Below, in pieces: positions 2,287 to 41,859 of a stretch of 64,000 bases of DNA. Position 1 is the first letter of the stretch. Each line of letters opens with the position of its first letter. Below the pieces are notes generated by a model. The model was not told where the DNA came from. It saw only the letters and a list, made by a program, of their open reading frames with translations, and made no database searches. Source of the DNA: Microbotryum violaceum (lineage: Eukaryota); the NCBI GenBank assembly GCA_001244265.2, contig CDLV01000006.1:372001-436000 (forward strand), in the 5' to 3' direction. Both the position numbers and the translations under genes were made by a program.

Positions 2287-2963
2287 ATGACGCGCTTGTC
2301 GATATCCCTCGTCATCGTGGGGGTCCTGGTGCACGGAGTTGTCGGCTCGCTCACGTACGAGCCTGATTTTTCAACGGGAGCGCCCGATAGCAGATGCAAG
2401 GACGGGCAATACTTCAGCACCTCAAGTAAGCCGGAAGCAAAAAGTCACCGATGAGATCATTCTTTTTCAGTCTCGTATGCTGATGACAATGCTTACCGCT
2501 TGAATCAGGTAATAGGTGCCTCGAGTGCAGCGGCAAGTTTCGGAATAGCCTGCGGTGCACCGAAGACGAGGCCTCTCGTGGTGCGTACAACATGTCCGCA
2601 ACGAATGCATTCTACCGGTAATGCCATGTGAATTGATGTAAGAACGCTCTTAGCAGTGACTATGGCTACCTCGACAACGGCAATTGCGTGCGAAGGACGG
2701 TATGCCTGGGCGCCTATTACGTTTCCCCGCGAGATGGTACGTGACCAACGTCGGAGTCCGAAGCGATCCCACCGCCCCTAACCCAAGCTGATCACCTTCA
2801 CTCCCTCCATCTCGCTCCTCGATATGTGATCTTCCCTCGCGCTGTTACAGGTGCTTCCTGTGTACCGTGTCCGGATCGGAATGCGGCGTCGTGCGACGCG
2901 TTTGGGACATCGATCACGTGCAGCTACGGCGCGGAGACCGCCGGGGTCTGTCGCGCCGTGCCG
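2287..2963 (+). pseudogene. 5' half of a secreted Cys-rich repeat protein gene (effector-like), broken by an inversion
   Basis: Signal-peptide-like MTRLSISLVIVGVLVHGVVG. Exons 2287-2425, 2509-2580, 2657-2736, 2851-2963 with GT..AG introns. Peptides CKDGQY, CLECSGK, NCVRRTVC, CVPCPDRNAASC, TCSYG. Apparent 1-nt frameshift at the exon 2/3 junction. Confidence 0.8.
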
Positions 2964-4075
2964 AGGCCACCGACACTCGACTTGGACCCGACGGCGCAGA
3001 CAGTCGCGTGCAACGATCTACTTTGACCAAGCTCGAGTCCATCCTGCGCACCGGCAATCGCTTTGTGAGGGAGTTCGCATCGGCCAAAGCTCACGCAGGT
3101 TGGGATACGGCCAAAGAGTGGATCCTGCACCTCTGCCTCCCGCCAGGCCGGGACCGACGCACCCACAACCTTCCTACGTCAAGCACGGAAATGGCGATGC
3201 TTATCTGCGATTCCGACACCGACACGGGAGATCGTGGACCGCAAGACCTTATTCTCCAGGTGCACGGTGAATGATGGTCCCGATGGTCGGCCCAAGTACC
3301 AAATCGTTAGCTCGCTCCATCCGTCTGCGATGCCTCTCCGGTACTCACTACTATTTCCTGCAGGGCAAGATGGCTTCCACCCCAACATTTCTTTTTGCGG
3401 GTTCCACCAAGCCGGGCCGCCAATCGCCAGAAACCGAGAGCAGATCGACAATGGTGTCCAATTGCGCGAGGTACTTGCCGGTCTCGGTCTGGATGACGAA
3501 GACGAACAGGAGGACGAAGACCGCGACAATGAGGATGAAGACGGCGAGGAAGGGGACGAAGAGGATGGTGATGGCGAACGTACGCGTCTTCGGCTCTTTC
3601 TCTGAGGTTCCATTCTGTCTAAGGCGCAAGCACAGACTGACATTGAACTTTTGAACACCTAGGACGAAGGTCAAGTAAAGGGTTCGAGGTGGCGAGTCTC
3701 GCGTTCACAATTCTTTGCGCACTACTTGCCAAAGGCGACGAGTACTTCTCAATCCCGCATTGCAACCAACGTCCCTTCCTGGATTTTGTGATTTACGGAT
3801 GTACTCCCAAGTCAGGACCGATTGACTCAACACATCCGGTTGCATCAAGAGAACCTACGCCTCACCACGACCCAAGGCATCAACGGCTTGACCCCGAACC
3901 AAATTGCGAAATCACGCAGCGATACCAGGATGCGATGGCGTGCGTTGTCAAACATGGAAAGCCTCCGCTGCTCATCAAGATGACGTACGACCCCGACTCA
4001 CCGGAAACTAAGGCTGCACTGGGGCCGATAAAGCATGCAACCGCCCGGATCATCTTATCGCACGAGTCGGGTTCT
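2964..4075 (+). mobile_element. Degenerate Helitron Rep/helicase fragment (continuation of 15968-16680)
   Basis: Frameshifted motifs THNLPTSSTEMAML, SSLHPSAMPLRYSLLFPAGQDGFH, SQFFAHYL, and Rep motif 1 QRYQDAMACVVKHGKPPLLIKMTYDPDSPE. Confidence 0.9.
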
Positions 4076-4299
4076 CACTGGTGTGCATAAAATACATTCT
4101 GTTGTTCTTGACCGCTAGGCTAAAAGCAAGTCGTAACTAGAACTCGGCAGTTCTAGCTACTCAGAGGCTACTTAAGAGGGCAGTTTTGTAAGGCACCCCC
4201 TTACACGGACTCTTCTGGACTCCACCAAATCGGGATTTCCCAGCTGCGACCGCTGCACACTGTCACCTTCGACTCAGCACGTGCACTCCACTGTTCACC

Positions 4300-7200
4300 A
4301 TGGAACAACTCAAGCAACAAGATCGAAGAGGATCAATCCGAAAAGTCTTCGGATCGCTCATTCGAAAGAAGTCTTCGTCTTCTTCACCATCGTATGCCAA
4401 TGGTGTCGATGAGGCTGCGTCAGTGCAGCCCCGGCCTCTCGACGCCTCGCGACAGCCACCTCGACCGAAGGCGCGCCATCCGCCCGGTGGGGCCCCACCA
4501 ACTCTTACTGATGCGAGAGCCAGTACATCCACCAAGACAAACCCAGTGGTTAACTCTCGCAGCTCTTTCAGCTTCTCATCAAGTGTCACGGAGTCGCGCT
4601 TCTCGTGGCAAGATCTCGGACTAGCGCGCCCGCCGCCATCACCGAATCAGATGAGCAGTCGAGGGCCCGCGGTGATGGCCCCAGCGGGCCGGCGCCGCAC
4701 GACAGTCTCAGCGATTTCGGCCCCGGAAACAGCCTTCAATTACCACCAATGCTGCTTAACTTGAGCAGCCCCAACGACGTGAGCGGAGTGGCAATTGGCC
4801 TACAAGTCGGGTTTGATCGGTAAGCTTTTCCTTGTCAGGCTATCCAGTGCCGTCTTCACATTCTCGAATTTAACCCCAAGACTAATATAACTCGCAGACT
4901 TTGACGATCCTCCTTTACCACCTATGGGTCTCCACCTATCCGCTTCGGACTATGTCTCTTCCTCGGGCATCCATCGATCACCCGTGCCGCTCGACGAGAC
5001 TCTCCGCCAGCGTGCCGTGGACAACCTTGGGCTTCTGCCGTCCGTGCAACACCGTGCTTCGAATGCATCGGTCGACACGGTCTACGACGGGGACCGTGGG
5101 CGCTCGAAGACACCTTCATCCGACTTGGATCTACCCTCTCCCAAAGAGTTGGCGTCGCACCCCGCTTTACAAGCCTTGATCACCAAGGCGAACGGCCACT
5201 TCGGGACCTGCGCGGGCAACGTCTCGCTTGTTTCGCAGGACAAGGTCGTCTACTTTGCCGAGCAGGGCTTGGGCGGGCTCGATAGTCTACCAAGGAAAGA
5301 GGTGGCCTGTGATAACACGTTGAACAAGGCGTCCGTACAAGGACTGCCATGTGACGATGGTCTCAGAGGCATCGAGTTCGGGGAGCTCGGCGCCGTGGAC
5401 CGCAGTGCAGAGGGGTTGATCATTCCAGACCTCAGCAAAGACTAGCGCTTCTCAAAGGCAAGTAGCGGGCGCGAGTGGTCGGGAGGCTTTGTTATCATTG
5501 AAGAGAGCTGACCTCAGATCACGAACGCCTCCTGGGTCCTGGCCACAGAACATGTTCGGAGAGTTTTCAAAGGGTTTCGGGCCGCCACCTATGTCCAGGG
5601 AGTTGCCGGCGAAGCGGGAAAATAAAAAAATAAAAAAAAATAAAAAAGAGAAGGAAGGGAAGGAAAAAAGAGAAGAAAAGAGAAAGAAAAAGAAAAAGGA
5701 AGAAAATAAAGAAAAGAAGGGAAGAAGGGGGAAGGAGGGGGAAGAAGGAAAGTCGAACACATGATGTACATGGGCATAGTACTCTCTTGTTAACTTGCCC
5801 GAATTCGGTATCTTTACACCAACACCAGGTACACGCAAAGATGGTATGCCTAAGCCTGAGAAACACGCTTACAGTCCCGCTCGCAGCCGCCTCACTTCAA
5901 AGCCTTTTCAAAGCTCGGACAGCAGTGTAAGGAGCAATGAAACAAACAAGCTTTGAACACGGGGATTACAAGATATATCCTTTGCTTTACCAGATATGGC
6001 TTCCACAAAAACTGTGCGAACATCTCACCGTGTTGGAGTTCCAATGCTTAGAGTAAGGCACCGGTCAATTGAGATCGCGGGTTCGGCGAGGCCAATCCGA
6101 GCTACCAACGAGTCTCGAATCACCGTTCTTGAGGACCGTTTTGTTGCGCTGGTATCCGTTGGAGCACATCCTGAATGGTGGAACAATTCGTAAATTGAAG
6201 GCCGATGAAATATCAAGATACCGAGGATGCCCATGTAGCGCAGAGAAGGATGCCGATCGATACCGATGCCGATAAGGATCAAGCCGAGGTCAGAAGATCT
6301 TGTCATATGGTCCGCCGAGCATAAACTCACGCCAGTCCTTCTTCTTGCGAGCTTCATACAAAGGCTGTTGGTAGCGCGAAGTGATGGCACGCTGGATGGC
6401 AGGTCGTGGAGCCAATCTGTATCCTCCTTGTGTTCCGATCTTAGTGGTTGCATCGAGTCACGATTTCGTCCCGCCGCAGTTCCAAATCCTCAATCGCCGA
6501 GGGAGCACAAGACCCGACACTCTTGCCGTCTGATGCTTGTTAAGTGTGTTCGATTCTTCATAGTAGTAACTGACTTTGTCCGTTGCTCTGCTCACTTGAG
6601 AGACGGCGTCCGTTCGGATCTTCGACCATACGGACCGGGTGGGCTCGGTAGAACTAAAGTCGAAGCGAAGGGTAGCTCAAAGTGACTATAGATGCGTTGA
6701 ACGAGTCGGACTGGGTATCGAAACATGAACGGATTTCTTTCTAGTCACTCCTCTGGGAACCGAGAACACAGAAACGCCGACTTCAGTACACGAGATGGAG
6801 TGGCAGGGGGAACGGGCTAATGGTCGGGCGACGACTCACGGTACCTTTTCTCGAACGGCTCTATTTCATGGCAGATGTTGTGACGATGGATGTCAGCTTA
6901 GCAACGGATATCATCGAGACGATCCTTAGTATTCGAGCTGTTACCATTGACCTGCACTTCTTGCGTAGTCCAATGATCGTGGTCGACCAACGTTGGCTCC
7001 GACCTGATCCTTATCGAGTCGGCGACTCCTGAACTTGGCTCATCTGAAGGTATTGCTCAGCGGGTATTCCAAGTTTTGCTACTTGCTTCTTTGTTGGTCT
7101 GATTGTCTTCAAGAATGCCTTGGGACGTTGTAGGCGGTTGACGACGATGGAACGAGGTGGACGGCGGACCTCGGGAGCCTGACGTTGGTGCGCTCGTGAT

Positions 7201-8816
7201 GCTAGATCAATGGCGGTCTTGCTCGATCGATGGCTCATGTAGGTTGATGAGCATTGGATTACAGCCCAACTCCGTGTCTTTGTCGACGTAAAGTGTAAAG
7301 TGTGCTAGTTCAGTGTCTCGCCCAGGCGTGCTGTTCACGCCAAATCGTTTCGATCGGCTTTGCTGAACGGCATCGGATGGGATCAACAATTGATGGCGAG
7401 TCTTGCGGTGACGTGGCAAAATACGTTGTGTGAGCTCGATGTGGTTGTCGCGCCGCGGGGGGCACGTGACTTCTGCTAACTTCCCGTGGGCCAATGCCAA
7501 CTTCCCCCACGCCTCTGCTAACTTCGCCAGTTTATGCCTAATCGGGCCGCAAGCGGGCCTCAAGCGCGCGCGCGCGCCTGAAGTTGGCGAGGTTAGCGCT
7601 CCCTGGACACCGCCAGCGCCCAGGGTCAGTACGCCGGCACCCCATCCGACTTCCTTCGGCTCTTGGTGACTCGTTTCCCACAAGACCCTGCGGTGTGTTT
7701 TGTATCCTTTCACAACAAGCTTGGACCGAACCTTTCGCGGACCAGGACCGTCAAATTCTCGCCAACCTTGCGGACGAAGCCGGACGCGAGCTGTTGAAAG
7801 TCAGCCAGGAGCGAACCGGGAAGCGCGGCGACAAGCTGCTGGCCAAGTACGAAGAGCTCAAGAACGCGAGTGCCGAGGCGGACCTACGAGCGCGAGTGAA
7901 GCGGGGGACGGTGTCACAGGTGGTGTTTCAAGAAGAGCTTCAGAACAGCAATGATGGTGCTTTACGGTCGATCGGACAATATCAGTCACTTGAGCGGGCT
8001 ATCCGCGGCGGCAATCTTTTTGAGCGTCGGACATCGCGGAACGGTTCGATCGACGCTCCATTCAAGAGTGCAAATCGCCACAGGCTCCCCTACCCCGAGC
8101 AACCCCTCGACCCCAGGCGGAGGTAAGCCTCCCACCACCACCAGTTCGACTGCCTCTTTGATACGCTCCTTCGCGCTCGACGAATTATACAATCTCTCGG
8201 CGAAAAGCGCGGCACCTGTCTTCCCGCGACGCCTCGCTCGGACCACTCGCGCCGATCCTGAAGCCGCGGGCGTCAACGTCCCCGCAGCTGAAGTATCGGA
8301 TGGCATCAAGAGCTGTTTCGATCTCTCGACAAGGATGATCTGCGAGAGCTTGGACTTTGACTTCTGTCGTGCGTGCATTCTATCACGCAGCGATGGTGGA
8401 CCTTGGCTGATAATTACTTGCCCTATTGCACACACGCAGACCTACTTATGATCAATCGCACAACTGGCAAAGCGGCAGTTTTATCCTCCCACAATTTGCC
8501 GCTGCCACCCCCGTTGTTCCATCTCGAATCTCATCTGAGTGCATCGACAGCTCAGGCGGTGCTCTACAATCGCTCCTCACCTTCCGGGGAGCTTGCTGCT
8601 TCAACAACTCTAGAGGACGACGAAGTCGCATCGGGTTTGATTTTTCGCTTGCCAACAAGATCGGTTTCGCTGACGGGGTTGGCAAGCAGGAGTGACGAGA
8701 AGGTGTATGTGCTGGGTGCATTCTCGACGGACCCCAGAAGAGTGATCGGGAGACAGGACTTAGCCTTTGTCAAGAGCACGATGCCCATACTTGGAAAAGG
8801 ATGCGATAGACTGTGA
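4300..8816 (+). pseudogene. GAF-domain sensor-like protein pseudogene, interrupted by a TIR element
   Basis: GAF-like segments LPRKEVACDNTL, IIPDLSKD*RFSK (TAG 5443-5445 where W is expected), GVFCILSQQAWTEPFADQDRQILANLADEA. Frameshifts near 4722 and 8060; insertion at 5592-7609. Confidence 0.7.
5592..7609. mobile_element. Non-autonomous or decayed TIR DNA element, ~2.0 kb
   Basis: TGTCCAGGGAG (5592-5602) and CTCCCTGGACA (7599-7609) form an inverted pair. Subterminal TCTGCTAACTTC/GCCAACTTC repeats; purine tract 5618-5755; sits inside a GAF-gene exon. No clear TSD. Confidence 0.6.
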
Positions 8817-9002
8817 GGAATGCAGTTCAGTGCGAACGCCTCCAATGTGATTCGAGGGGATCTCCTTGGGGTTGAGTATCACTCACGGCGTCTGTTAGCG
8901 AGCCACCGGGCATGACATAGCACTCGAGCAGCCTCGTGGATGCCAGCTCCGTCGATGTCCACTCTACACCCTGGGCTTGACAACCGTGAGAGCCACTCGA
9001 GT

Positions 9003-10380
9003 TCACCCGCAACCCAATTCGAACGTTGTAGTCTTCGGGCCGATCTTGACATCGATCTGCTTCACGTCGATCGGGATAGTTCTCAATTCTCTTCCCAACT
9101 CATCATTCATGTGCTGAACAGCTTCGTCGTCGAAAGGAAGTATCGCTGTGCCGAGAGTGTCTTGGTCAGAGCGCCTCGATGAGGTGAGGGCCGTCCAAGC
9201 GATTGAGGTATGGAATCGGGGTTGCGAATAGTAAGGTTCGAGACGGAGCGAGATGACAGTCTGGTCGATCAACCTGGTCAATCGATTCATCTTACAAAGT
9301 GAAGGAGTATTCGAGGTCAGAGAAAGGGGCAGAGGCCGAACTGGAACGAGCGAAAATGTGGTCCACTCACCTGGTCCCAGCCATTACCGATTTCAATGCC
9401 CAAGAATCGCGTGGTGCATTGATCATTTTCCAAGACAGCAAAGTTCGCGTACCTAGCTTGAAACCTGTCAGCGTTGACTTGGTTGGAATCAGCATTCGCT
9501 CGTCCAACGTGCTAGGCAATCGCAGGAAAAAAACACTCGCGGCTCAATGACCTGCGCCGCTTTCCGGACTCCATCCAGCAGTGCCTGCCGTTGGTTTGTC
9601 ATCAACATCAACGGCCTAGAAAGACTCAAGTGTAGCTCGTCTTGCTTCTTCTCTTCCTTCTGTGCCGAAGACGAAGCGGATTGGGCATACTTGTCTGCGA
9701 GGTGCGACTCCGAGAAGAGTGGGACGATGCTCTCACGCGAGGCGGCAGATTCGGTACTCGCTGCCTCTGCGGTGGCCAGTATTCGACTCCGAGCGATGCA
9801 ACGTTGGATGATACGCTTGAGAGGTTCTGTTGCTTGGACTAACAGTCCATGCAGAGGGGCAAGACTATGTTAGCACTCCTTCACAGAGGCAGCGGCCCGG
9901 GAAGGTCTCGACCTACTGGTGATGAACACGTGCGAAGGCCATTGCCCCGGAACGTGTGGATGAATACGCGTTCGAAGAGCTTGTTTTTGAGGTGCAGCTT
10001 TTTGAGCTGCTGCTTTTTGAGCTGCGAGGAAGTGGACATTGCAGAGACGTGATGTGCGCGATACTCGACTGGACCATCAGCCCAACTTGATTTACAGGGG
10101 TCGGTTCCAGTCGAGCGAAGTGGTAGCTCACCAGTGGTCCCGTCCGATTCGATCAACGTGACTGGGTCGACAGATGTCCTGGAAAGTTTGTCCTTCGGTT
10201 CGTCATCGAAATCGATGCGCGGCAGTTTCCTGTCCAGCGTGGATTTGCAGCACCCAAGTTCGTGTCCGACGTGTACAGCCACCAAAGTCAGCGCTTCTAG
10301 ATCCAGCCTGCTCTCCTCTGTTGCGGCGATAAAGCAAGGGTCCTGGAGGAACACGATTAAACCCACCTCTTGATGGCCAT
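9003..10380 (-). CDS. USB1: U6 snRNA phosphodiesterase (2H / HVSL family), multi-exon
   Basis: RIHPHVPGQWPSHVF, LHLSLSRP, FAVLENDQCTTRFLGIE, PRFHTSIAW (two HxS/T motifs). Confidence 0.85.
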
Positions 10381-10688
10381 CGGACCCCGACACTCGGCGC
10401 CCTGCGACTCGACGACGGACGTGTAGAGAGATTGCCAGCTCACGACGGAGCGCGAGACGGACCACCACGCCGAATTAACTCACGTGACTTGGAATGCCTG
10501 GGCGGTGGGAAGCTCGGCACTGCAGGGCACTGCAGCGGGCACTCGAGTGAGTCGCCATCACCCGGTCCCGGGGCCATTGTCAGATCCGCAGCCTCTGTAA
10601 GCCCAACATAGGACTAGCTCCGAGCGTGAAGGTTGAGGTTCTAGACCATCCCATCGACTCCTCTTGTCCTCCGCCGCGGTCGCCCGAG

Positions 10689-13600
10689 ATGAGCCGCCGC
10701 GTTCCTGCGCCGGTCCTGACCCACGCCGGTCTCATGTCGCCCATCTCACTGAGCTCACCCACGTCGTCGTCGTCGCTGAGCAACACTCGACCGCTGTCGG
10801 CCGCTGTCTCGTCGTCGTCGCCCTCGGCGTCAACCTCAATGTCACCCTCGCCGTGGTCCGCGACGCCGTCATCCGCAGCATCGGAACCACCAGCGGCGGA
10901 GGCACGATTGACCCCCAGCTCGGAAGGAGGGGCCAAGGAGCCGACACTGCTGTCGACACTGTCCGCCAACGATGAAGAGTCGTTGCTGTGCCTGTGTGTC
11001 GCGCAGGGCGATGCGAACGTTGCCAGTGTCGGTGTCGGTGGGGGTGCTCGAGCAGGATCGTCATCATCGCCGTCGTCGTCGTCGGTGTCGGGGAGGGTCT
11101 ATGCAGGAAGTCAGGGCGGATCAATTCATGTACGTCCCACTCGATGGGTCGTTCCCCACCGAGCGAGCTGATCCGACTGACTCCAGTTGCCCCGCCCCTT
11201 TACAGGTGTGGAGCTTGGCCTCGCTCAGTAGGATCGCTCGGCTTTCCGGTCACACCGGTGCGGTGTTGGCCCTCGAAACCGTGAACGAGAACGGATGGCT
11301 CATTAGTGCTAGTGGTCAGTCACCTCACCTCACCTCACCCCATCCCCCACTGCGTCAACCCCCCACTGTCCGCACGTCCGCTCAGGTCTCTCTGCCGATC
11401 CCGGCCAGCGCTGATCCTGTTGCTGCACGATACAGGTGATGGCACAATCAGGGTCTGGCACACGCCTACGCTCTCGCCTTTGTTCCTCATACACCCGCCC
11501 CACGACAACGTCGGCGACATCTTCTCGCTCGTCTACGTACCCGATCGCTTCATCTCCGACGACCCGCCCGACTCGGCCTCGTCCGAGGACCATGGCCACG
11601 ACCATGAGCAGTCCCCAGTGCACCAACGAGCCAAAACCATCTGGGAGCACGACGGCAAGCCTTCATCGTTCAAGAATGCGCCTGGAAGGGGGCCGAGCAA
11701 GGAGAGGAACATTCCAGATAATTCTGCGCAGAATAGCCATGCGCGCGGTGGGGGGCGCCTCTTTGCAGGCTGTCAGGACACCTCCCTCCAAGTCAGTTCT
11801 CATCTGTCGGAGAGGACCGCATTCCGAGTAGCTGAAACCCTTTGGTTGCCCTCACTCAGTGGATCGACCTGCCGGCGCTGCCGTCGTCAACGCACGCAGC
11901 TCCCTCCGACTTCCCCACATCCAGAACTCCGACCCCAATCCCCTCCTTCCCCTCCCCAGGTCTAGCATCATCGTCTCCCCCTATCCATCGCGCGCCCAAT
12001 AAATTCTTCGACAACTACGACCTTAAATCTCGCGCGATCCCCTTGTTGGGCTCACCCGGTCACACCACCCCCATCACCTCGACGCCGAGAGCCAACACAA
12101 GATCGTCCTCACTGACCGACCTGCAGGGCTCGAGTCTGGCCGCATCCGGCAAGCATGCCGTTACGGCTGGCGCCTCGGGTGCCTTTGCGGCCAACGGTGG
12201 CGATGGCTCGATCGATCTGCAGATCAGCGAAGACTGCATCGCCACCTTTGCGCACTACGGCTACATTGTGAGTCGACCACCCTGCGCGTGACGGCAGCGA
12301 GACTGATCTTTGCTGCTACTCTGGTTGTTTTCGTAGTACTGTCTAACCTCATCTTGCTCAAATGACTCGCCCATCGTGATTTCTGGCTCGGGCGACTCGC
12401 TGATTCGACTGTGGTCCCCCCATCGATCGTCGCTCTCGCTTATCCACACCTTGCATCCGCCACCGTCCGCACCCCCCACCTCCGAAGCCATCCTGTCGTT
12501 GGCGACGCACCCTACCTTGCCAACCTTATTCGCGGGTCACCAAGGGGGTCTCATCACCATCTGGGATCTCGACACGTTCCAATCGCTGCGCATCCTGACG
12601 CCGCATACGTATGACGTGTTGAGCATGGTATGTCTCGAGCGTGGAGAGCTCTACGCCGGCGATTCGGGGGGAGGTGTGACGCGGTGTGACAAGGCCTTCA
12701 CAGTTGTGCAGCGGTGGCAGGCTGCAGGGGATACGCACGACAGTCGCAGGGAAGGTGCGGTTCTTGGGATGGCACTGACCGATGGGAACCGGCGCGACAA
12801 GGGGAGTGAAGCCGTAGCGGGTAGGAAGAGTCTTTTCACGGGAGGTAACGACCGCTTCCTGAAGGTTTGTCGAACCCCAATAGGCCTGAAAGCTTCCTTG
12901 ACTGATGTTGGCTTCTTGGGCCCGCCCATTCTTCAGGCTTGGGACTTGGTCGAGCCACCGGAGCTGACGAAGGAACAGGAAGCTGCTCAAAGTGACAAAG
13001 GCTTCCAAGGTGAGCAGAGAGGTGTGCTCACCATAGCTATAGCTCGATCTGCTGCTTACGCCGAAGGTTCAACGTTGATACCGACTACAGGCGAGCTTTT
13101 CCACCTGCTGTCGCGCTTCGTCGCCTACAAGTCCATCGCATCGCTGCCCAAGCTTCACGCCGAGGAGTGCCGACAAACGGCTCTGTACCTCAAGCGAGTG
13201 TTGCGCTCGTTCGGAGCCAGTGTCGCACAGGTCATTCCGAATGAGGTCGAGGGCAAGAATCCGTTCGTTTTTGCCCAGTTCTTGGCGAATGCGCTTCCCA
13301 AGGTCGACTCGGCGGGTGCGCCAATCCTCAGGCGCAAGCGTGTGCTATTTTACGGGCACTATGATGTGGTCGCGGCGGACGAGGAGAAGGAGGGATGGAC
13401 ACATGATCCGTGGAAGCTCACGGGGAAAGATGGCTGGCTTTATGGGCGTGGGGTCACGGATAACAAGGTACAGGAGCATTCTCGCAATATGAGAAGTGAC
13501 ATGAAGTTGACTCCCCCTGTTCTCCTTCAGGGCCCAATCCTTGCGATCGCCTCGGCCGCATCGTCGCTGCAACTGTCTCAATCCCTCCCAGTCGATCTCG

Positions 13601-14694
13601 TCATGATCCTCGAAGGCGAGGAGGAGACCGGGTCAGCTGGATTCCAGGAAGTGATCCGCAAGCACCGCTCCTTGATCGGAGACATCGATGTGATCTTCGT
13701 ATCTAACTCTTATTGGATCGGCGAGGATATCCCTTGCGTGACATTCGGATTGCGAGGAGTCATTCATGCCAGTCTCAAGGTACGTCCTAACTTGCTCTGC
13801 GTTTCGAACCCTTATTGCTGTATGGTAAATGGGGCACTGACGACTTGACTTCATGTTCTCATGCAGATATCCTCGAATCAGCCGGATCTTCATTCGGGCA
13901 TCTCGGGGGGAGTTGTCTCGGAGCCGCTGGTCGACATGGTCCGGATTCTCTCCACGTTGACCTCGCCAACGGGCCAGATTCTTATTCCCAATTTCAATGC
14001 ATCCGTGCGCGCGCTAGCGCCGGCTGAGGATGCACTCTACGACCGCATCATTGACCGCTGCTCACCGTTACTGCTGACCAAAGGCTCCCACGAACTCGAC
14101 CCTAAGAAATCGTTGATCGACCGATGGCGGCAACCTGCTCTTTCGATTCACGCCGTCACTACGAGTTCCCCTTCCAAGGCGCTGATCCCCAGTAGCGCCG
14201 AGAGCAAACTCTCGATCCGCATCGTGCCTGATCAATCTCTGGAGGAGGTCATTGAGAGCTTGAAGCGACATTTGAAGGATGCTTTCGCTCGATTACGGAC
14301 CCATAACCGGCTTCAAGTGAGCGTAACGACCCATTCAGGGGCTGCAGCCTCCTTCCCTCTCATTCACTCAACTTTTTCGTATGCCGTCTCCTACGAACAG
14401 ATCGAGATCAACCACACCTCGACCTTCTGGCTCGCTTCACCTCACTCTCCGGCGAACACGCTCCTTGCAGAATGCATTCACGGGGCGTGGGGCATCGAGC
14501 CCCTCTTTATTCGCGAAGGGGGTTCAATCCCCTCGCTGCCGTTCTTGGAAGCCGAATTCGATGCCGACGCCGTACACTTTCCCATGGCGACGGGGCAGGC
14601 GAATGCTCATCTAGGAGATGAGAAGATCCGGTTCGAACATCTCGAGAAGGGGCGGAGTATTGTGGGTGAATGGCTGAGGAGGTTGGACGCGTAG
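10689..14694 (+). CDS. DUG2: WD40 + M20 peptidase fusion, glutathione degradation Dug2-like, multi-exon
   Basis: WD repeats (GHTGAVLAL, SGSGDSLIRLW), then M20 motifs FYGHYDVV, LYGRGVTDNK-GP, EGEEETGS, DLHSG, IREGGSIP, AHLGDEK. Confidence 0.9.
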
Positions 14695-15131
14695 CTTCGT
14701 ATGGCTCAGAGGCAATATCCATACCCCCGGGGTCACTTAAATCACTCAATGCTCGAGCCCATGACGACGGCGCGAAATCTAGTTGCCGATTCGGTTCTGG
14801 TCTCATCAACCAGTGATACCGACTCAAATCTTCATGGCGCATGCGTCCTGCGCACGCGTCAATCTCTTGGCAGTCCGATCGCTCACGCTTGGCGACAGAT
14901 CGAGCCTCGGATTGATGAAGCTTGCTGCTCCTTTAAGCAAGCAAATTTTTCTTTTGCTCTCCCTCCAGCGTACTCTGCCCGCCCGGGCTGAACTACGAGG
15001 TTCTACGACCTAAGCTCTACTAATTCAACCAACAATTTGAGATTACATCGAAGCCTTAACCGCAGCTGCCTGAGCTCCAAAGACAAACAAGGAGAGCATC
15101 TAGTACCCGAAAAGACCAACAACAAAGACGT

Positions 15132-15967
15132 TTAGTACCCCGATGGCTTGCCTCTCTGACCGTTTTGCCCGGTGTAGAAGATTTGCTCTATGCACCGAGC
15201 ACTGAGGCGAAGCGCCTCTTTACCTGGTGACCGTTTGCTCGCGTCCTGGTATCCTCCAAGCACGCTCACCGAAAAGCCAGTCGGCGCATGCGTCAAGGTG
15301 GTCGGATCGAACGTAGAGATTCGTTGGAGTACGCATGACTTGGTGGCCGTCGAATAGTACGCTATTCTCTCCGATGCTATTCTCGAGAAGGCGATGCGCT
15401 TGGTATAGGTGGTCGAGGGGATCACATAGGCGGTCTCGAAGCTTTGGCCCAAGCCGAGTTTTCCGTGGCCAATTACTTCGGACCCAAATCTCGAGACCGT
15501 GTATTGCTGCAAACACGTTCGAGACCGTTCGGTAGGGCGACCATATCCTTTTCGACACGTCAATGGTGTGTCTACCTCGCTACACGACGTAGCGAACGGA
15601 TCCGTGCAGCATGCATTTCCTGTACAAACTCAGGTAATGAGTAAAGGAGCGTCGCTCGGATCAGCACTATCGTCATGACGCCTTTCTTCGGAATAGGTGT
15701 GAAAATGAAGTGAACTGACCATCCGACGATGTTGGGCAATTGACGAACGTTCCGTCGAGCATTCGCATCCCCTTGCGGCAGTTGAACAACACTCGTTGAC
15801 TCGCCGGCCCATCCTCGCTTTCCAGTCTTCGAAAGCATGCGCGTCCTGACCGCAGACACCGCCAGAAAAAGGAGCACACCAAATCAGCAAGCCGACTTGC
15901 GAGAACGCAGCCACACCGAGTCCTCTCTAATCTCACCGTTCTGCGCGACGATTTTGCCAGATGGACA
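15132..15967 (-). pseudogene. 3' half of the secreted Cys-rich gene that starts at 2287 (inverted, no start codon)
   Basis: Exons 15967-15937 (CPSGKIVAQN), 15845-15720, 15619-15132 (GNACCTDPFATSCSEVDTPLTCRKGY...stop), with phase-1 GT..AG introns as in the 5' half. Confidence 0.8.
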
Positions 15968-16680
15968 CGGCCGGGTCGATCAGCCATGTTTGAGCAAAGG
16001 CTGGGCGTTGATTTACGGCAAGGATCAGGGCGCCGAGTTGATGGTAGAGGCGACCAAACACGCGAAACACGGGGGGTCCTAGCGTGCCCACTTGAGTTTG
16101 GTCCCAGTGGGCAGCGAGCGAAGTAAACGACAATGCGTTGTTGTACGACCGGGCATTCTCGCGGAACGCTTTAGCAGTGCAGACGAATGTTGTTGGACGG
16201 AGCAACTGACCGCTATCCTTCAAGTAGATTTCGATACTTGGGATCGGGCTTCGAGGGGGAGGTAGCTGCACCTTACCCTGCGAGCAGCACCCATGAAGTG
16301 TCCGGTCGACTTCGACCTTTCGCACTCCCAGTGTCGAGTCTTGAAGTGGATACACACGGCCATCTGGGGCCGAGGTAGTCGCGGATGGGAACGTGGGGCT
16401 TGAGTGGTTTGAGCGGGGTTCGAGGCCTGTGCACTTGCTCTGCGCAGGAAGAGGTGGTGGTGGGGCGAGCTCAGTGTCGGTTCGGCCATCGGGCCCTCGC
16501 GCTGACCACGCTGTCCGTTCTACAAAGCTGTACGGCGGCGCTTATACGGCAATACCAAGATCGGTTGAGTTGTTGTCATTGTGCGCGGGGAGCTGATTCT
16601 GTTGATCGGAGCGGGACGAAGAGGAGAGGAGATGAGCGTGGCGCCTAGCGGGCCCATGGTCTCCCCATGTTCCCGCGGTA
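15968..16680 (-). mobile_element. Helitron N-terminal fragment
   Basis: Zn-finger-like CIHFKTRHWECE...CCSQGKVQLP, FRENARSYNNALSFTS, GPPVFRVFGRLYH, PAFAQTWLIDPA. Confidence 0.9.
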
Positions 16681-17329
16681 GGACAGGACCCCCGAAAGCC
16701 TAAGCTCGACGCCCCTCCCTCTGGGGCTTGTGAGTTATCGGCGCGCTTGGCCCAGTTGCCCTCCGAAATTTTGGCCCTGAAAAGTGCCCCCTTGCTGTAG
16801 CATGGCATATATTGGTGCTATCTGAAAACTGGAGGGATACGTCTTTAATTCAGCATTATTGATGAGGCTTCATCGAAGCTTGAAGTCTAGGAACACTTGA
16901 CCATCTCGCTACAGCAGCTTGAATCAACTGACTGATTCCGAACGAGACGCAGGTCGGCGCACGCAGTCGTAGTCCGGTCCGCGTCGAAGGCTGCATAGAT
17001 CCAGGTCACTTAAGCCCGGCCGCGCCTCACGCATCCTCTCTCTCCTCCACTCAACATCACACCCCCCCTCATGATGAGCCATGTCGGTACAAACACCCAG
17101 GCCGGTTAGGAGACCGCCCGGTCGACATCCATCAATTGAGTTCAGGGCGCCTCCCTTGCGATCAGCTTCAAGGGCCAGTCCTACGACCCCAGCACCGAGT
17201 CATTCAACCAATCCGACAACCGACCTTCCTGCCGGCCGGCTCGTTCTCGGTCACTGAAGGCCACGTTTGACTCAGGAGGACCGACGAGATTCCAGCGAAT
17301 GACGCACGAAGGTCAAAGTTATTCTGGGC

Positions 17330-17915
17330 GAAAGTCTTGACGACTCGGAGGACGTACCCCCGGCCCGTGCAGATCGAGGTCATTGCTGTACTTTCTAAAC
17401 TCGACCAATTTGGGAACCGGGATCGATATGACGCTGTGTTTGTCACAGCGCCAACAAGTTTAGGCAAAAGTGTTATTTTCGAAGCATTGTATCTCATTTA
17501 TGGACGCCGGGCCGTCAGCATTGTTGTCAGTCCACTATATGCACTGAGCAATCATCCGGTGAGTTTTTCTGTCGACTGGGCTTGCTGGACCGACATCCGT
17601 GCTGACTTCCGCAGTCACCTGCTTCTTTCAAGCTGCCAATTTCAATCGAAAGGGAAAGAAAGTGGTTTTGGTATCTGAGGAGACCTGGAGAGACGGCGAG
17701 CTGTACAGGCAGTTGGACGACCCCAATCCCACGATCTCCTTCATTCTGATCGTATGTGCCGGTTGACCTCCTGTTTGAGTGAAGCACACATGTGTTGATT
17801 TGCCTTCTTGTTTGCTGCGTGTGGAGTCTCTTGAAATGCATATCAACAATCCAGATTGGGCAAAGTTGATCTCTAACGAGTCCTTTCGAGAGCGCGTCAA
17901 GTTGCCCGTCTATGA
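17330..17915 (+). pseudogene. RecQ-like SF2 helicase remnant carried by the AcademH element
   Basis: PRPVQIEVI, motif I-like TAPTSLGKS, motif Ia VVSPLYAL, degenerate motif II VYDE. Confidence 0.75.
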
Positions 17916-18059
17916 CGAGGACAGGGGGTGGTGTGCATCGAGGACCGCGAAGACTGAGGCCAAGAGGAGGAACCAGTCGAGCAAGCGCTCGATATATCTG
18001 AACTTTGAGCCCAGTTGTAAATGACGAGTCGGATTGGGGAGTTAGGAGAAGATGCTGGA

Positions 18060-19183
18060 GATTACTCGCGGTAAAGATGCTTGATGTGCAGAGTAGGCTC
18101 GAAGGTTGTAAGCGCCGGCAATATCTCCGTTCTGAATGTGGGCGTAACCAAAAGTTCCATGAAGCAGCTCGGTTCGTCGATCCAATTGCTGATCGTTGAC
18201 GTGATGTGTGACTTCAACGTTGTCAACTGTAACATGGAAGTACTTGTTCGAGCCACTCTCCTTCAATTCGCCTTCGTCAAGCTCGCAGCTGCCTGGAGAG
18301 TCGCCAAGCGAGATGTCGTCAAGCCGCAATCGTACAGAAATGTTGTCAGTCTGTCGTTCGCTCCACATGCGAGAGTCACGAGACCGTTGCGATGCTGCAT
18401 GGAGTTGTTTCTTCGGTTGCAAGCGAATGCGATCTGACCCATGACACTGCGGTAAAGCTGCGGCCAGCGTGTTGATTTTTGGTGTCAGTTCGCTGCGATA
18501 CCCAGCCGAGCTAGGGTCAGAAACACTCACGCTTCATCTCGTTAATGATGATTGAGTCGGCCTGCAGGCGAATAAGGCAAGTATTCAGTAGCTTTATTGG
18601 ATCCGGTAAATCACTCCGAGAAGTACGAAGTGTTGTCCACCTGCTCGGCGATCCAGTCATTGATTGAGTCGGCTTCAAGTTCTTGACTCTGCGCCATCCT
18701 CGCGTGCAAGTCGTAGAATGAGATCAAGTACAGGCTTAAGGCTGGACCTGTTGCTGTTGAACAGCTTTGGTAGGTGTGTTTTAACGCCTTCAAATCGTGT
18801 GGATGGGCTGAAATACCACGACAGGTATTGACATAGCGAGAGATCGCGGCTACAAAATTCAGCGAATACGGATCCGCCTCGCGGCGGTTGTTCTGGCAAG
18901 TTGATGAGGTATGGCATCTGCTTGTTCGCGTCATTCTTGGTTTCAGATATTGTCGCGCTTGACGTGGCCGACGATCCTCGTAAAAAGAGGAGAACAGCGA
19001 AGCGTACGCAAGGGGATCAAGCCGAACGGAGCAGGCTCGCCGATGATTCGAGCGCCAATTACAAGATGCGCTCGGACCATCTGAGGCCCGATCGACCGAA
19101 ATCGCAGACTTCGGATCGTTGTAGCTCCACCCACAGCTTATGAAAAATCTCACCACTTGGGGTATGTCAATTTTAGAGCACAA
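18060..19183 (-). pseudogene. AcademH transposase (DUF6589-associated) N-terminal remnant
   Basis: Frameshifted IAFACNRRNNSMQHRNGLVTLACGANDRLTTFLYDCGLTTSR and HVTVDNVEVTHHV...LLHGTFGYAH resemble rust-fungal DUF6589-type proteins (recalled similarity). Confidence 0.65.
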
Positions 19184-19545
19184 AGAAAAATAGGATCCCT
19201 CACTTTTGCATGAATGCGCGTACTTGCCAAGTTACAGAGAACCACTCCAAAATGGCTCTGAAATTTCGGAGGGCATCTGGGCCAAGCGCGCCGATAACTC
19301 GTAAGCCCCTCCCAGAGGGGGCTTAGTAGGACCCGGGAAAGCTCAGCCCAATGTGCGTCTCAAAAAACGGCGGTTTTTGGCGGATTTGTACATCGGGATG
19401 AGGTGTCTGAGGGGTCGATTTGTACGTATTTTCGGTCGTAAGTTGGAGTAGTTCCGAAAACATGAAAAAAAATCAATGTCGTGAAATTGCCCAAAAATCG
19501 CTCTCCATCAGCCAGAAATACGAAAAATCGCTCTGACGACGCGAC

Positions 19546-22500
19546 AGGACCCCCGCAAGCCCAGCCAGAGGCGCATGCGGAAAAACGCCCTTTTTTGGCC
19601 TTTTTGTCAAAGTTTTTACCCTATTTTGGCCCCAAAATGTCGAAATTTCGCATGCGCCTCGGAAATATTATCAAAATGTGTTCTACATGCTCCAAACATC
19701 GCTCCAAAGTCCTCGAAAACGCGTTCCGAGCGTTTGCGAGCGCGCGGCGGCCTATCGAAAGTGGTTTGCGGCGCGCGTCGCTTCAGCTGGTGTTGCGCGT
19801 GGCTCCACGCTTCAAACAAGCCTTCCTTGCTTTGCTGGCTCGCTCGCTGCTTCGTTGTCAGACTTCCTTTTTGCTGAAGTTGAGCTCCTTGTTTCCTCGG
19901 TGGCATTTGTGCGGCTTGTAGAGGTTCTGCCGGTGGCATCTCGCAGGCCGGGCACGCTCCGAAGGGCGGCAAATCTTTGCTCGGCATGTGCGCTCGTGCT
20001 GATTAGGCGCTCGTCCGGGTAACATGAGGTAAGGTCCGTGGTTGAACGATATGTAGTCGTTGATGGGCCTAATGACTCGATGACCTGTCGACCATCAATC
20101 ATGCGGAACGGCATAGTGCCATCAATAAGGTGTGTGGAATAGCATGTTTTCTTGATGAGGCGAAGCTCCTGTACGACGACATTTGAGAGTAGAACCAACG
20201 AGGCGAGCGTGTCTTGGTTGCAGTGGTTTGTTGTCACTTTGCTGTAGATGTGTCGCACTGTAGGACACAAGACTTGTGTCAAACGAGAACTTCCTCAACT
20301 GCCACTCAAAACAACGCGCGTACCAATTCTGTCTGTTCAGCTTTAGCGGTACACGGTCCCTTTCGGTTTCTCGAGCCCCGCTGCAACATGACATCACCTC
20401 TCTCGCTAAAAATCACTGTGCAAGCGGCTTTGGAGAGTTGACGATAGACAGCGCTTCTTCTCCATAAACAGTTTGATCGCAGCTGAGTGAATGCATGCCA
20501 CACTTGAGGCCAAAGCAGATCCGAGATCCAATCTCCAATGGTGTGGCAGCGGTTACAGCTCCGTCAAACGATCCAAAATGAGGATAGCGTTGTACTAGCG
20601 CTCCATACTGCTTGTCTCTCTCAGGGAGCTTTTCCTAAAAGTATAGGACCGGCAAAACATTAGATCCAGTTGCCTTCGTTCCTAAATTCAGCAACAACTC
20701 ACTTGAATGCGGCCATCCTCAATATAGGCGTTCTTCTAAATCTCGTTCAAGCTCCTCGTCGTGCCCGCCATGTCTTCGCGGCGAGATGGTCCCATGGACT
20801 GTACCAACCCTTTCAAGACGCATGAATGTGCTGTACTGCGTCCTTCCTCTGTATTGCTAACCCCTACGCCTGCCTCTTCGCGAGTTGGGTCGCTCGATTC
20901 CATTGGCCTCCCTTGAGTAGAACAGCTTGAGGTGGCTACACTTATGAGCAGCTTGATGGGCAATCAGGTTGGCCAGTTCAGCGAGAAATTGGTATCGCGA
21001 GCATCGACAACTTGAGGCGGAAGTTTCAAGTGTGTGGGCTGTGTAGAACCGAACACGCGTGAGCTTAGACTAAAATTTCGATAGTTGAGCTTGGTAGACG
21101 CACGATTGGTCGTGAGAAGCTGTTTGCCTTCTCAACGGCCTCGAGTAGATGATAAGGTCGAGTAGTGGGTGAGTTCGTCTTTGGACAACTCGATGTGAAG
21201 AGACGCGTCGGCGGGAGCGACATCGAAGGCGAGGCGATCGTCATGTTCATGTTGGCGAGCGGCAATAATCAATCGAAGGCATCGTTCAAATAGTAGGCCT
21301 GCATGGGATGATCTTGTCGTGCTATGCTCCAATCTCGGACCGAAGTGAAGTGGAACGGAACCTGCGCCCTTTCAATATCTAATCGGCCTAATCCCTTACA
21401 GCCACTTAATTCAAGTGAATACGGAAGATGGCGAGTACTAAATGACTTGTTCAAGCGCTGGATCTGGTGGGCCTACTTTTGCCACCCTCCTCCACAGTGG
21501 GAACGCGCGGTGAGGAAGACGAAGGCGCTGCTCCCTCCACGATGGATCCGCTACTTCGAAGCCTGGGATTTGGTGACAACGCTCAACCCCCCGAACTTTC
21601 CAAGAGCCCGAATCTCGAGCGATGGGCAACACACGTCCTCTACTTCCCAGCAGGCCATGGAATCCAACTCTCGGTGAACCCGACGCTTTTCCGAGGACCC
21701 GATGGCGAGGTGATGACTCCCTCTTCGTTTGTGAACGCGTCCAAACGCCACCAAGCCTTCCTCTACCCTCCTATCCTCCCTGTCGGCCATCAGAGGGTTT
21801 TCTGTCTCCCCGAGCAACGCTGGAATGCCTGGTGGAAGGCGCTACGCAAGGCTCGCAGGGTTCATTCGGACGCCGAAGACACGGCCCACCTCCTCTCCCT
21901 AGGGTCACTTCATCCAGGTAGCCAACTCGCTTCTCCAAACAGCCCTTTTCTCCACAATCGATCTACCGCATGCGTCATGTGCCTGTCGGAGGCTCCGGAG
22001 ACCCTGGCACACCTAGCGGTCGGTTGCCCGTTTGCCCGCCGCCTCTGGTCTGCGCTCACTCCTTTCCCACACCTTTGTTCAGTTCGTGTGCCCGGTCGTT
22101 TCTCGCTCGGAACGCCGACTCGTCGAGCTGTGTCTACTCTTCTTCCATGCGATCTGGAAGCTTCCTCGTCACCGCCGATCTTCGTCGGATCCTCTGGAGC
22201 CGATCGCCGAAACGGCATTCGAGGAGCTCCGCGCGTCCATCCAGAAGTCCAAGGGACGATTGGTTTCGCTGTAATCACCTAAGGGGGTTTTAGTGGGTAT
22301 GGTTGATTTTGTTCCAAGGTCAACGAGTCCTACACTACTGGCCTAGCCAGTGTGCTTAACTGCATTTCCTCCGTCTTTTCCGAAAATTTTTAGGCATTAA
22401 TATAGATATGCTGTTAATGAAATCTATTAGGAAAAAAAAAAAAAAAAAAAAACGAGCATCGCGAAACGCGTCTCGAAGCGAAGGCAAACGGGCCCAAAGT

Positions 22501-22712
22501 CATGCCGTAGGCTGCTCAGGGTAGGCCAAAATTGGGCCGAATCACGGGAAAATGTCAAAATCTAGACATGCGCCTCGGGGGCGAAACGTGTGTTTCGTCC
22601 CAAAATGTCAATTTTTTGCAATGCGCCTCGACGATTTTCAGGATTTTGGGTCCTCAAAATGTATAAAAAAAAATAAAAAAAAGACGCCTCCGGCTGGGCT
22701 TTCGGGGGTCCT
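19546..22712. mobile_element. TIR element (AGGACCC family, inner copy) with 8-bp TSD
   Basis: 28-bp TIR AGGACCCCCG(C/A)AAGCCCAGCC(A/G)GAGGCG. TSD GACGCGAC (19538-19545) / GACGCAAC (22713-22720). Subterminal ATGCGCCTCG and CCCAAAATGTC repeats. Confidence 0.88.
21350..22452 (+). mobile_element. 5'-truncated LINE (L1/Tx1-like ORF2 C-terminus with zf-RVT) with poly(A)
   Basis: CVMCLSEAPETLAHLAVGCPFARRLW zinc finger; frameshifts; A21 tail at 22432-22452. 5' boundary approximate. Confidence 0.85.
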
Positions 22713-24419
22713 GACGCAACCCGGTACTAACGTCGCGTCCGCTTTGACAGCCGGCCGCTTGGACCCTGCGAAGGTCCCGACCGCTTATCGGCTCGGCTCC
22801 CTCCGTCTGCATTAATACCCCTCTCCTCGCCAGCATATGCAAGTCCCTTCCGAATCGGGGCCAACGACGCTGCAAGGACCCCTTTGAAGCTTTGCAGCTG
22901 GTAATATCGCGCTTGCGCCTGTGGGTCTAGGACTCGCCGAGTGTGGCCGTCGAAGCCAAAACCAGCTGGGGGCTCAACGGTCTGCACGCTCGAGTTGTAG
23001 GTGTCAAGGCAGCTGACGACCCGGTGACCATTCAAGAAGAAGATTCGAGCTTGGGCGCGGCTGCTGCGATTGGTGCAGACTCCGGAACTGGCTTGCGTAG
23101 GAAAGAGCTCCTGAATCACGATGTTGGAGACGAGTCCGAGGGATTCGGTGCTCTCAACACTGCAGTGAGGCATTGCTGGTGACGGCTTTGTGTAAATATA
23201 GCGCACTGTGGTGCATACAGAGGCCGACGTGATGAGCAAGTTTTCTCAGTTGCAGTGAGGGTGTTTGAAATGCACAAAACAAGGTGCTTGCCAGCTTGAA
23301 GTACGCGGCGTCGCGTTTGTCATTGACCTCAACATTGCTCAGCCAATCAACGTTATCCGAGATGGTTGACTTCAGCTGCTCGACAGAGTCCAGATGTTGC
23401 CAGAATGCTATGGAACCGATTGGCATGTGTTCCACTATCGACATGTAAGGGGATCGAACCTCGATGGATTGATAGCCGGTGGCGTACAATTCTCGAAGAT
23501 CGTGAGTCTTGTTGAATAAGGCACGGGTAGTGAGTGTTATTGGGGCGAATCTGATGCTGATGGAATGTTGGCTCGAACTCGGATACGGCGAGCGTTGCGG
23601 TCAGGTCAGGCCGGGTGAATTTGAACGCGAGAAGCTCGCCGACAGTGAGCTCGGCAACAGGAGTCAGGAGACATCATGATAGCGGTGAATTGCTCATCTG
23701 GAATATCGAGCACGTCGCCTAAGAGCAGTTGAATTCGTGTATCAGGAGGGGCTGCTGTAGATGACATGCTGTCCTCTTAACCCTCAGCCTGCAACTTGAA
23801 GCTGAGGGCACGCAGGCTAGGGAAGTGCGCAGAAGGATGCTCGCGACGTGGCACAAGGTGAGGGTGGTCAGAGGCTGTCACGGGCGTCTATTGGCATTTG
23901 TTTCACTTCCAGCGCCCTTGATTTGGTGAGCGTCTGTACGTCTGTGAGTTCTATGAGCGTGAAGCATTTTTTTGCATTACAATCGGCTCGCGCGTCCAAT
24001 TTCGTTCAATTTCGTTCAGAAACTCATTCAGACTAATGGACCGCCAGTTGGCCCGCGGCGCGCGCCTACTGATCCCAGACCGCCGCCGCTGATACGTGCT
24101 TGGCCATCGGCCGAGCAGGGGACGACCAGGGAGGTGCGAGGTCGGGGTACATTGATTTGTACCACATCCAGGACGTACATCCAAGATCTGGAGTGCCAAA
24201 TTTTCCGATTTGTACCACTTTTGAATCGCAGTTTGGGGTTCGGAGGGTCCGATTTGTACATTTTTGGGGACGCACATTGGGCGGAGCTTTCCCGGGTCCT
24301 GGCTTAGTTGAGCTTAGCACACAAGTAGCCCACACGCCTCGGTTGCCAGCACCCCTCCCCCACCCTACGGTCCCTACCACCCTCGGCGACCCGTCAACCA
24401 GTGTTATCTCTTCGGCGCC

Positions 24420-40436: not shown

Positions 40437-40609
40437 ATACACTGGCTTCCTTCACTCGTCTGTTTCATCCACTGCCAGAGGCAAGAGTGTTACAGAGAAG
40501 TTCTAGACATCCGAGTGGTGGTATTGCGGTGGTAACAACCCAGACCCGGTAGTAACTACGCTGCACGTACAGAAGAAACCCGGAGGCCGGGGGAATAACC
40601 ATCCAGGCA

Positions 40610-41017
40610 GATATTACCCATGTCAAAGTTAATACCCGGCTGGGGGGTATTACCGCGCGCCTGGTTATTACCCCTTCAGCTGGGTATTACCCCCCTTCAG
40701 CTGGGTATTAACCCCGTTCAGCTGGGTATTAACCCCCAGCCGGGTATTACCCCTCGACTGGGTATTACCCAGAGAGATGGGTAATACCCGGCTGGGGGGT
40801 ATTACCGCGCACCCGGGTATTCCCCGTCGGCTGGGTATTACCCGCGGAGATGGGTAATACCCGTCAGAGAGTTAATGCCCGACGTGGGGTTAATACCGCG
40901 CGCCTGGGTATTGCCCGTCAGCTGGGTATTACCCAGGCGCGCTCGGGACAATACCCAGGTGAGACCTGGGTAATACCCTTCAGAATGGGTATTACCGGAA
41001 TTAACCGACCCTCAGTG
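40610..41017. repeat. Subterminal repeat array and probable right terminus (CAGTG) of the CACTA element
   Basis: About 20 copies of quasi-palindromic GGGTA(T/A)TACCC, mostly at 18-21-bp spacing, ending ...GACCCTCAGTG. Confidence 0.8.
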
Positions 41018-41859
41018 CGTCGCGTCACACTGACGAAATGAGCCGAGATTGACCTGGAAGACTGTGTCAGATAAGCGGTGGCTTTATAAAAGGCCATTCC
41101 CCAGCCGTCCCCAGAGATCGCTGACCATCATTTTTAAGGTGGCCAGCGCGGATTTTGGGTCATCGTCTGTCCTGTATTCTCCGTAAAAAACTCCTTGCCA
41201 AAATGCCCGGACGTGACAGCCCGCCTTATCGCTGTCTGGAGCCGGAATACTTCGAGTCTCACACGAATGGCCAGCCAGTCTGCCTATATGTGTCTCCTCC
41301 GACACTTCCGAATATCTCACATCTTGTTGTACTTATGCTGTTGCTGGACTCCATGAGTTGAAGAAAAATTGGAAAGACAAAGATCAAAAAAAAAAAACGC
41401 GAGACGACCCGATCTGGTGCAGTGAAAGTGAGTACGTATAGTGGCCCGTTGGCTGAGCCGGGGGTGGGAGACAGTTCGTCAAAGTTTTCAACAAATATTC
41501 ACGATACAGGCTGATGTTGAGTTTGCAAGAGGGCGTACTAGTAGTAGATTGATCGCCTGCCGCATTCAATTATGTATTGCCCGGCGCGGGCCGGCCGTCT
41601 CCCGCGTCTCCCGCGTCTCACCTCGGTGCTTGTGTCCGTGACTGCTGCCTACGAGACTCGCGCGTCAGATCGTCAGATCACCACACCAACACCAACCACC
41701 CTTGACAGCTCTTGGCAGCTCTTGACGGCTGTTGGCCAAGGCGGCGCTTGGTCGTGCAGTGGACACTGGAGCGCATTAGGACCCCTTTCCCCTGCAGTCG
41801 GCTCCGATTGTCGTGGCCAAGACTCGGCGTTGAACGTTGACCGGTTGACCTGATCTCGC

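Follow-up and report, generated by a model that had tools for sequence, protein, structure and literature searches.

Analysis of 64,000 nucleotides of Microbotryum violaceum DNA (NCBI GenBank assembly GCA_001244265.2, contig CDLV01000006.1, positions 372,001 to 436,000 of the forward strand; the whole stretch is called the window here, and positions are counted from its first letter) revealed a real, reciprocal and fully balanced 13-kb inversion that broke two elements at once, a gene for a cysteine (Cys)-rich protein predicted to be secreted, and a Helitron. Mapping of orthologues and paralogues across the junctions places the inverted segment, to which no strand is assigned, at 2964..15967 (13,004 bp). 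The best overall explanation, which we hold at a probability of about 85%, is a balanced inversion in which exon 4 of the Cys-rich gene and a young, frameshifted Helitron exchanged partners within the 4-mer GCCG.

Junctions and balance of the inversion

At the left junction (GCCG at 2960..2963, plus strand), the 5' half of the Cys-rich gene runs from within its exon 4 into the 3' part of the Helitron. At the right junction (GCCG on the minus strand, CGGC on the plus strand, at 15968..15971), the 5' part of the Helitron runs into the 3' half of the Cys-rich gene. These are the positions given in a preliminary description of this DNA. The right 4-mer overlaps a CGGCCG palindrome at 15968-15973. 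Exact inverted identity between the junctions is limited to 4 bp, with mismatches flanking GCCG on either side, and identity of at least 4 bp was found in 1.7% of 200,000 random inverted joins made within the window.

Continuity of the reading frames, which the preliminary description had obtained by reversing the segment, also emerged without joining the pieces, when orthologue and paralogue proteins were mapped onto each half separately. The intact orthologue from M. saponariae (P0002) is identical to the window at 37/37 residues as far as residue 141, where the match ends at 2963 on the plus strand, and at 11/11 residues from residue 142, starting at 15967 on the minus strand. A search with the 5' Helitron part returned 111 Helitron-like proteins, 102 of which matched both halves; 101 of these 102 did so in exact register, and in 85 the same Ala codon was both the end of one match and the start of the other. 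The contiguous motifs expected of intact relatives are present as well: RAVPCPSG is exact in P0002, C.AV.CPSG is found in both orthologues, and IDPAEATD is contained in 41 of the 111 Helitron-like proteins. Net loss or gain at either junction was zero at the protein level, as judged from P0002 residues and Helitron register (balance was assessed on proteins of relatives). Because both junctions keep GCCG and the flanking residues match intact relatives, nothing was lost.

The same data bear on whether the Helitron caused the rearrangement, either through ectopic recombination of one copy with another or through nicks made by Rep as the element transposed. One break does lie inside the Helitron, the right flank is rich in transposable elements (TEs), and the copy, being young, may have offered a fragile site. 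Nevertheless, a single Helitron was split once, with Helitron sequence on one side only at each junction; the partner site is a host exon; and repeat search and self-BLAST of the window found no long inverted repeat or pair of chimeric TE copies around the segment, in agreement with the earlier view that TE copies did not recombine. Helitron ends are the normal nick sites, but the break lies inside the open reading frame (ORF), other copies are continuous at the break codon (101/102), and the Rep of this copy is frameshifted, which makes a causal role for the element highly improbable.

The inverted state is derived and shared by two sister species

Both junctions are also present in M. silenes-dioicae. 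The gene model BQ5605_C015g07841 (P0001) passes from Helitron sequence, across the right junction, to the 3' half of the Cys-rich gene. BQ5605_C015g07850 (P0177) leads from the 5' half of that gene over the left junction to the Helitron and is identical to the window at 136/140 residues across the junction. These two public gene models are thus junction chimeras of the Cys-rich gene and the Helitron, and the DUG2-like gene of the segment is 07842 on the same contig. An assembly error might be entertained because one side of a junction is repeated DNA. However, both junctions recur in the gene models of another species, the same order appears in a published gene table and the broken halves have decayed. 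The occurrence of both junctions in a second species' assembly excludes an error for practical purposes, and we regard its probability as practically negligible. Neither of the findings that would have refuted the inversion was encountered, since orthologues and paralogues run uninterrupted over both junction sites and the sister species has both junctions.

The inverted state is derived, in that intact Cys orthologues occur in two outgroups, M. saponariae and M. intermedium; this polarity refers to the Cys-rich gene. In M. saponariae the Cys-rich gene stands next to DUG2, an arrangement compatible with either orientation and not counted as evidence. Protein searches with window sequences gave Microbotryum matches throughout. 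The window matches M. lychnidis-dioicae: its DUG2 showed 0 mismatches to MVLG_01350 of that species in two long alignments, compared with 7 and 2 when aligned to the model from M. silenes-dioicae. [quoted passage not shown]

The locus is autosomal. A published M. lychnidis-dioicae gene table lists MVLG_01340-01353 as autosomal, running from Ufd2 to PP2C, MSP/SCS2, DUG2 and HVSL (PMC4469406, supplementary file 2). Gene order and spacing in this table fit the window under a single offset, and the table has no gene model at either Cys half.

The interrupted Cys-rich gene

The 5' half of the gene, corresponding to orthologue residues 1-141, occupies 2287..2963 on the plus strand (exons 2287-2425, 2509-about 2580, 2657-2736 and 2851-2963). 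The 3' half, residues 142-361, occupies 15132..15967 on the minus strand (exons 15967-15937, 15845-15720 and 15619-15132), with the two further phase-1 introns that had been anticipated, at 15936-15846 and 15719-15620, and a TAA stop at 15134-15132. Beyond the left junction the Cys frame runs on into Helitron DNA for 20 new codons and then a stop (2964..3026, plus strand). The N-terminus is hydrophobic and resembles a signal peptide by eye, so that secretion is predicted.

A search with the last exon identified three proteins among 292 candidates of at least 290 aa. P0002 and P0003 (the latter from M. intermedium) are intact, with 361 aa and 26 Cys at identical positions, and both map onto the two window halves with zero residues missing. 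A broader paralogue search, across 1.84 billion representatives, gave 19 matches, ten of which were looked up (P0187, P0189 and P0191-P0193 were among those left out). The ten comprised seven Microbotryum paralogue clusters, including those with MVLG_05513, MVLG_05534 and MVLG_04379, one junction chimera (P0177) and two tick proteins, which were dropped as cases of repeat-driven similarity.

P0002 aligned with MVLG_05513 over 295 columns at 26% identity (E 4e-24), and homology together with the conserved Cys pattern identifies the gene, by sequence comparison, as a distant member of the MVLG_05513/05534 family. This family is described as nine Cys-rich proteins, seven of them predicted to be secreted (PMC4469406). 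Cys spacing and C-terminal layout of the intact orthologue are similar to those of the family members MVLG_05513, 05514, 05515, 05533, 05534 and 05538. In contrast to such similarity, identity to the family is only 25-31% across our alignment (A1), and the present branch is single-copy in every outgroup found, with no intact model in either of the two sister species.

The predicted structure of the full-length protein has a mean predicted local distance difference test (pLDDT) score of 51, rising to about 75-86 over residues 41-150. Repeats are accordingly predicted over residues 41-150 with moderate confidence, and the break would fall at the repeat end, between C137 and C142. Foldseek with the full-length model returned nothing at E <= 0.001, its weak rows being laminin-EGF and furin-like repeats, and a Pfam search of the Cys proteins returned no family. 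For the C-terminal part, modelled at pLDDT 33, the Atlas neighbours are PAN clusters at 0.92, yet they share only 137-140 features. A PAN/apple-like C-terminal domain is a lead to which Pfam and the low-confidence model add nothing.

The Helitron is a young passenger

The two Helitron parts belong to the same copy. The 3' part (2960..4068, plus strand) is frameshifted, non-autonomous and limited to the Rep region. The 5' part extends over 15968..16664 on the minus strand, its outer end being approximate and taken from the furthest protein match. The direct Pfam match to Helitron_like_N (PF14214) is weak (E 0.006, below the cut-off), and segment 16175-15969 has 97% identity to the PIF1-bearing proteins P0008 and P0009. 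In the window itself the PIF1 helicase part gave no match, protein matches stopping at 4068, and the Rep region carries several frameshifts, so this copy does not have the open Rep plus PIF1 helicase ORF of an autonomous element. The first frameshift is read as ATSTSQSR in 28/111 models, 7 of them from M. saponariae; its sharing across copies suggests that the subfamily was coding-dead and non-autonomous before the inversion.

The Helitron halves of M. silenes-dioicae agree with other copies at 38/38, 31/31 and 98/100 residues, and this near-identity indicates that the copy was young at the species split. The inversion would then probably have happened not long before the split, judging from residue identities that gene conversion could mimic. 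The Helitron is a young, already frameshifted passenger and not the driver. Helitrons are reported to be abundant in this species (PMC4469406). Beyond 4068 the M. silenes-dioicae model continues differently from the window, suggesting that the 3' part was later lost or replaced in the window lineage. A hairpin-like palindrome of 20 bp lies at about 4137-4156, near the end of the Helitron match at 4068, and could be an element end.

We also considered the M. saponariae Helitron-like protein Chr1-3g01609 (P0077) as an orthologous old insertion. Its gene tag stands five from the Cys-rich gene (01614) and four from DUG2 (01613). It was set aside, since it matches the junction copy at 27/37 and 67/79 residues compared with 38/38 and 98/100 in unrelated copies; it may be an independent nearby insertion or an orthologous, fast-decayed copy.

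Possible routes of exchange at GCCG

We propose that one break fell in exon 4 of the secreted Cys-repeat gene and the other about 13 kb away in the recently inserted, frameshifted Helitron. The two sites, sharing GCCG in inverted orientation, would have swapped partners inside the 4-mer with no base lost or gained. Annealing of blunt breaks at GCCG would merge the two copies and leave the other junction 4 bp short, so that a reciprocal exchange appears to be needed. The earlier term "microhomology-mediated" thus holds for the 4-bp identity but not in its usual sense of microhomology-mediated end joining (MMEJ), since both junctions keep GCCG without codon loss.

Indeed, classical MMEJ, in which blunt breaks would be resected and annealed at GCCG, predicts deletion of one microhomology copy, whereas both copies are kept here and zero codons were lost. 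Microhomology is present and MMEJ has been described in fungi (PMC9779921), but we consider this route very unlikely. In the account given in that source, yeast MMEJ deletes sequence and uses 8-20 bp, and basidiomycetes are without a clear Pol theta.

A homology-guided reciprocal exchange, through exchange of strands or a double template switch during replication, could have taken place at an inverted repeat that is short and imperfect but has a perfectly matched GCCG core, and as an account of the chemistry, which we infer from the product, we give it a little less than an even chance. The junction neighbourhoods align at 21/32 columns, a weak inverted similarity of about 30 bp around GCCG. 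Given GCCG, flank similarity of this degree among 3,000 random pairs had frequencies of 1.2%, 1.4% and 3.6% in gapped and 3.5%, 7.3% and 4.5% in ungapped alignments, for flanks of 12, 15 and 8 nt, respectively. These values are suggestive of similarity between the sites beyond 4 bp.

Staggered double-strand breaks with complementary short overhangs in GCCG, religated crosswise by canonical nonhomologous end joining (NHEJ), would give the same balanced product with the 4-mer at both junctions, and this route is a possibility that we entertain tentatively. Topoisomerase II leaves overhangs of 4 nt. A near-identical case in Cryptococcus was interpreted as NHEJ (PMC3302566), but the staggered-cut model leaves the similarity outside the 4-mer unexplained, and our literature search on balanced inversions of the topoisomerase II type found nothing on point. 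Precise ligation of two blunt breaks, with a coincidental 4-bp identity, also yields a balanced product, and such identity is found in a measurable share of random joins, in a case chosen partly for its microhomology. Chance would have to account for the 4-mer (0.017) as well as for the flank similarity (0.01-0.07), however, and we judge this explanation unlikely.

Several points weigh against our overall explanation. Support for the junctions comes from assemblies and gene models rather than reads, and the evidence from other species consists of automated protein models rather than DNA. The published gene table (PMC4469406) is perhaps from the same strain as the window and thus another assembly at most. 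Presence in two species could reflect introgression rather than ancestry, yet DUG2 differs at 7/1,077 sites between them. As to the chemistry, the P values for flank similarity are modest, post hoc and dependent on the chosen flank length, and no direct discriminator separates template switching from staggered-end ligation.

Decay of the broken gene

Comparison of the Cys halves with their relatives suggests that the gene was in use until it was cut. On the shared branch of the two species we found three derived substitutions and two in-frame losses of six residues each, with 0 Cys lost among 273 compared sites, and so few changes fit a Cys-rich gene that was functional until the break. After the split, the 273 sites show six changes confined to the window and 0 confined to M. 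silenes-dioicae; the window-only changes include the conserved Cys residues C185, C274 and C323, that is, three Cys lost. DUG2 shows four window-only and three M. silenes-dioicae-only changes at 1,077 sites. In addition, with the consensus-like donor 2581, exon 2 of the window is out of frame and only the weaker donors 2585 and 2594 preserve the frame, whereas P0177 reads exon 2 through as the orthologues do. Reversing the inversion therefore restores the frames at the junctions, as previously described, but does not yield an intact Cys-rich gene in the window lineage, given the later damage away from the breakpoints. The outcome of the inversion, as read from these comparisons, appears to be loss of the full-length secreted protein followed by decay of the halves, faster in the window lineage.

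Alternatively, the inversion may have made a new gene. The 5' half would keep the promoter, leader and Cys repeats and would gain a 20-residue tail with one Cys from the Helitron, giving a small secreted protein of about 155 aa that would still be made and selected in M. silenes-dioicae and would have been lost in the window lineage. The 0/273 changed sites in M. silenes-dioicae against six plus a frameshift in the window (binomial P 0.03) favor this scenario. In contrast, all six changes lie in the Cys 3' half, the difference from DUG2 is not significant (Fisher P 0.19), and the same excess on the window branch is seen in dead Helitron DNA next to the right junction (8/68 codons). The one-sided excess in dead Helitron DNA argues for an effect of the local mutation rate and not of selection acting on the sister species, and we find the origin of a new gene doubtful.

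Over 15132-16450 (minus strand), every substitution close to the right junction falls on the window branch, possibly as a result of local hypermutation beside the TE nest described below.

Genes carried inside the inversion

Three genes had been described as reoriented, namely DUG2, USB1 and a GAF gene. DUG2 and USB1 were indeed turned round with their coding frames intact. The DUG2-like gene (10689..14694, plus strand; MVLG_01350 in M. lychnidis-dioicae) is intact and combines WD40 and M20 domains, and USB1-like exons with an HVSL match (PF09749) lie at 9003..9869 on the minus strand, coordinates that refer to mapped exons and not to the full gene extent. The third gene (4300..8820, plus strand) is also inside the segment but is itself broken: a TAG stands in its frame at 5443-5445, and about 2 kb of inserted DNA (5592-7609) is bounded by 11-bp inverted ends. 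Its fragments had no Pfam or PDB match to sustain the GAF label, and its resemblance to GAF is presumed from motifs only, leaving the label unconfirmed. The published annotation models only the 3' part of this gene (MVLG_01352).

Relation to known rearrangements

The kind of rearrangement is already known, but this particular event is apparently unreported; we found no published account of it in a search that left most subscription literature outside its reach. The closest precedent is the reciprocal translocation involving chromosomes 3 and 11 of Cryptococcus neoformans H99, also a basidiomycete (PMC3302566). As described there, a 3-bp microhomology was kept at both breakpoints and two reading frames were cut at once, both of them are accounted for by a reversal on paper, and the pieces were misannotated as separate genes. 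The H99 event differs in being a translocation with a 1-bp insertion that cut two host genes in one strain only and had a phenotype, whereas the Microbotryum event is an intrachromosomal inversion with no insertion, has a dead TE as one partner and is common to two species.

The same source presents six small inversions in C. neoformans var. grubii, five of which span 2-4 genes; they are lineage-wide, in most cases with a TE close to a breakpoint, and in three the break lies within a gene and gives a new 3' end, as here. They differ in that most breakpoints are intergenic, and base-level balance is not among the features described in the portions of that account available to us. Inversions between the North American Microbotryum lineages MvCa and MvVi (PMC7038665) belong to the same genus, are autosomal and are fixed within lineages. 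In contrast to the present case, they are described as large, with breakpoint repeats, and were attributed to inverted-repeat recombination and linked to signals of selection.

The inversion offers a base-exact, polarised, clean and datable rearrangement in a model plant-pathogen pair and a shared derived marker for the M. lychnidis-dioicae/M. silenes-dioicae clade. It also documents the loss of a conserved secreted protein within Microbotryum, whose secretome is reported to have changed mostly in sequence, with few gains and losses (PMC6831777). Being perfectly balanced, it provides one data point against an origin of such inversions by deletional MMEJ. The event would be of greater importance only with proof that a half-gene is expressed and under selection.

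Other features of the window

A TE nest at 16670-24300 contains inverted arms at 16712/19261, 19328/24261, 19541/22685 and 16673/22697, together with a weak DEAD-helicase fragment (17271-17678) and a remnant resembling a long interspersed nuclear element (LINE; zf-RVT, 21446-22282), behind which lies poly(A) at 22432-22452. Three places (86-196, 22339-22449 and 41273-41309) carry a dispersed repeat of about 110 bp; one copy stands just before the poly(A) at 22432, and the repeat is possibly a LINE 3' end. An Rfam search of 1-26,000 gave no match.

Further along, short repeats, direct as well as inverted and based on a GGGTATTACCC-like unit (40587-40998), lie beside a Tnp2-family transposase (PF02992, 37316-38017), and this repeat cluster is probably the end of a CACTA-type element. 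A gene cluster at 44747-52194 includes a GT2-GT4 glycosyltransferase, a heme oxygenase and a second GT2-like gene (MVLG_01341-01343), and a tandem repeat at 62510-62685 consists of about 2.5 nearly identical copies of a 71-bp unit.

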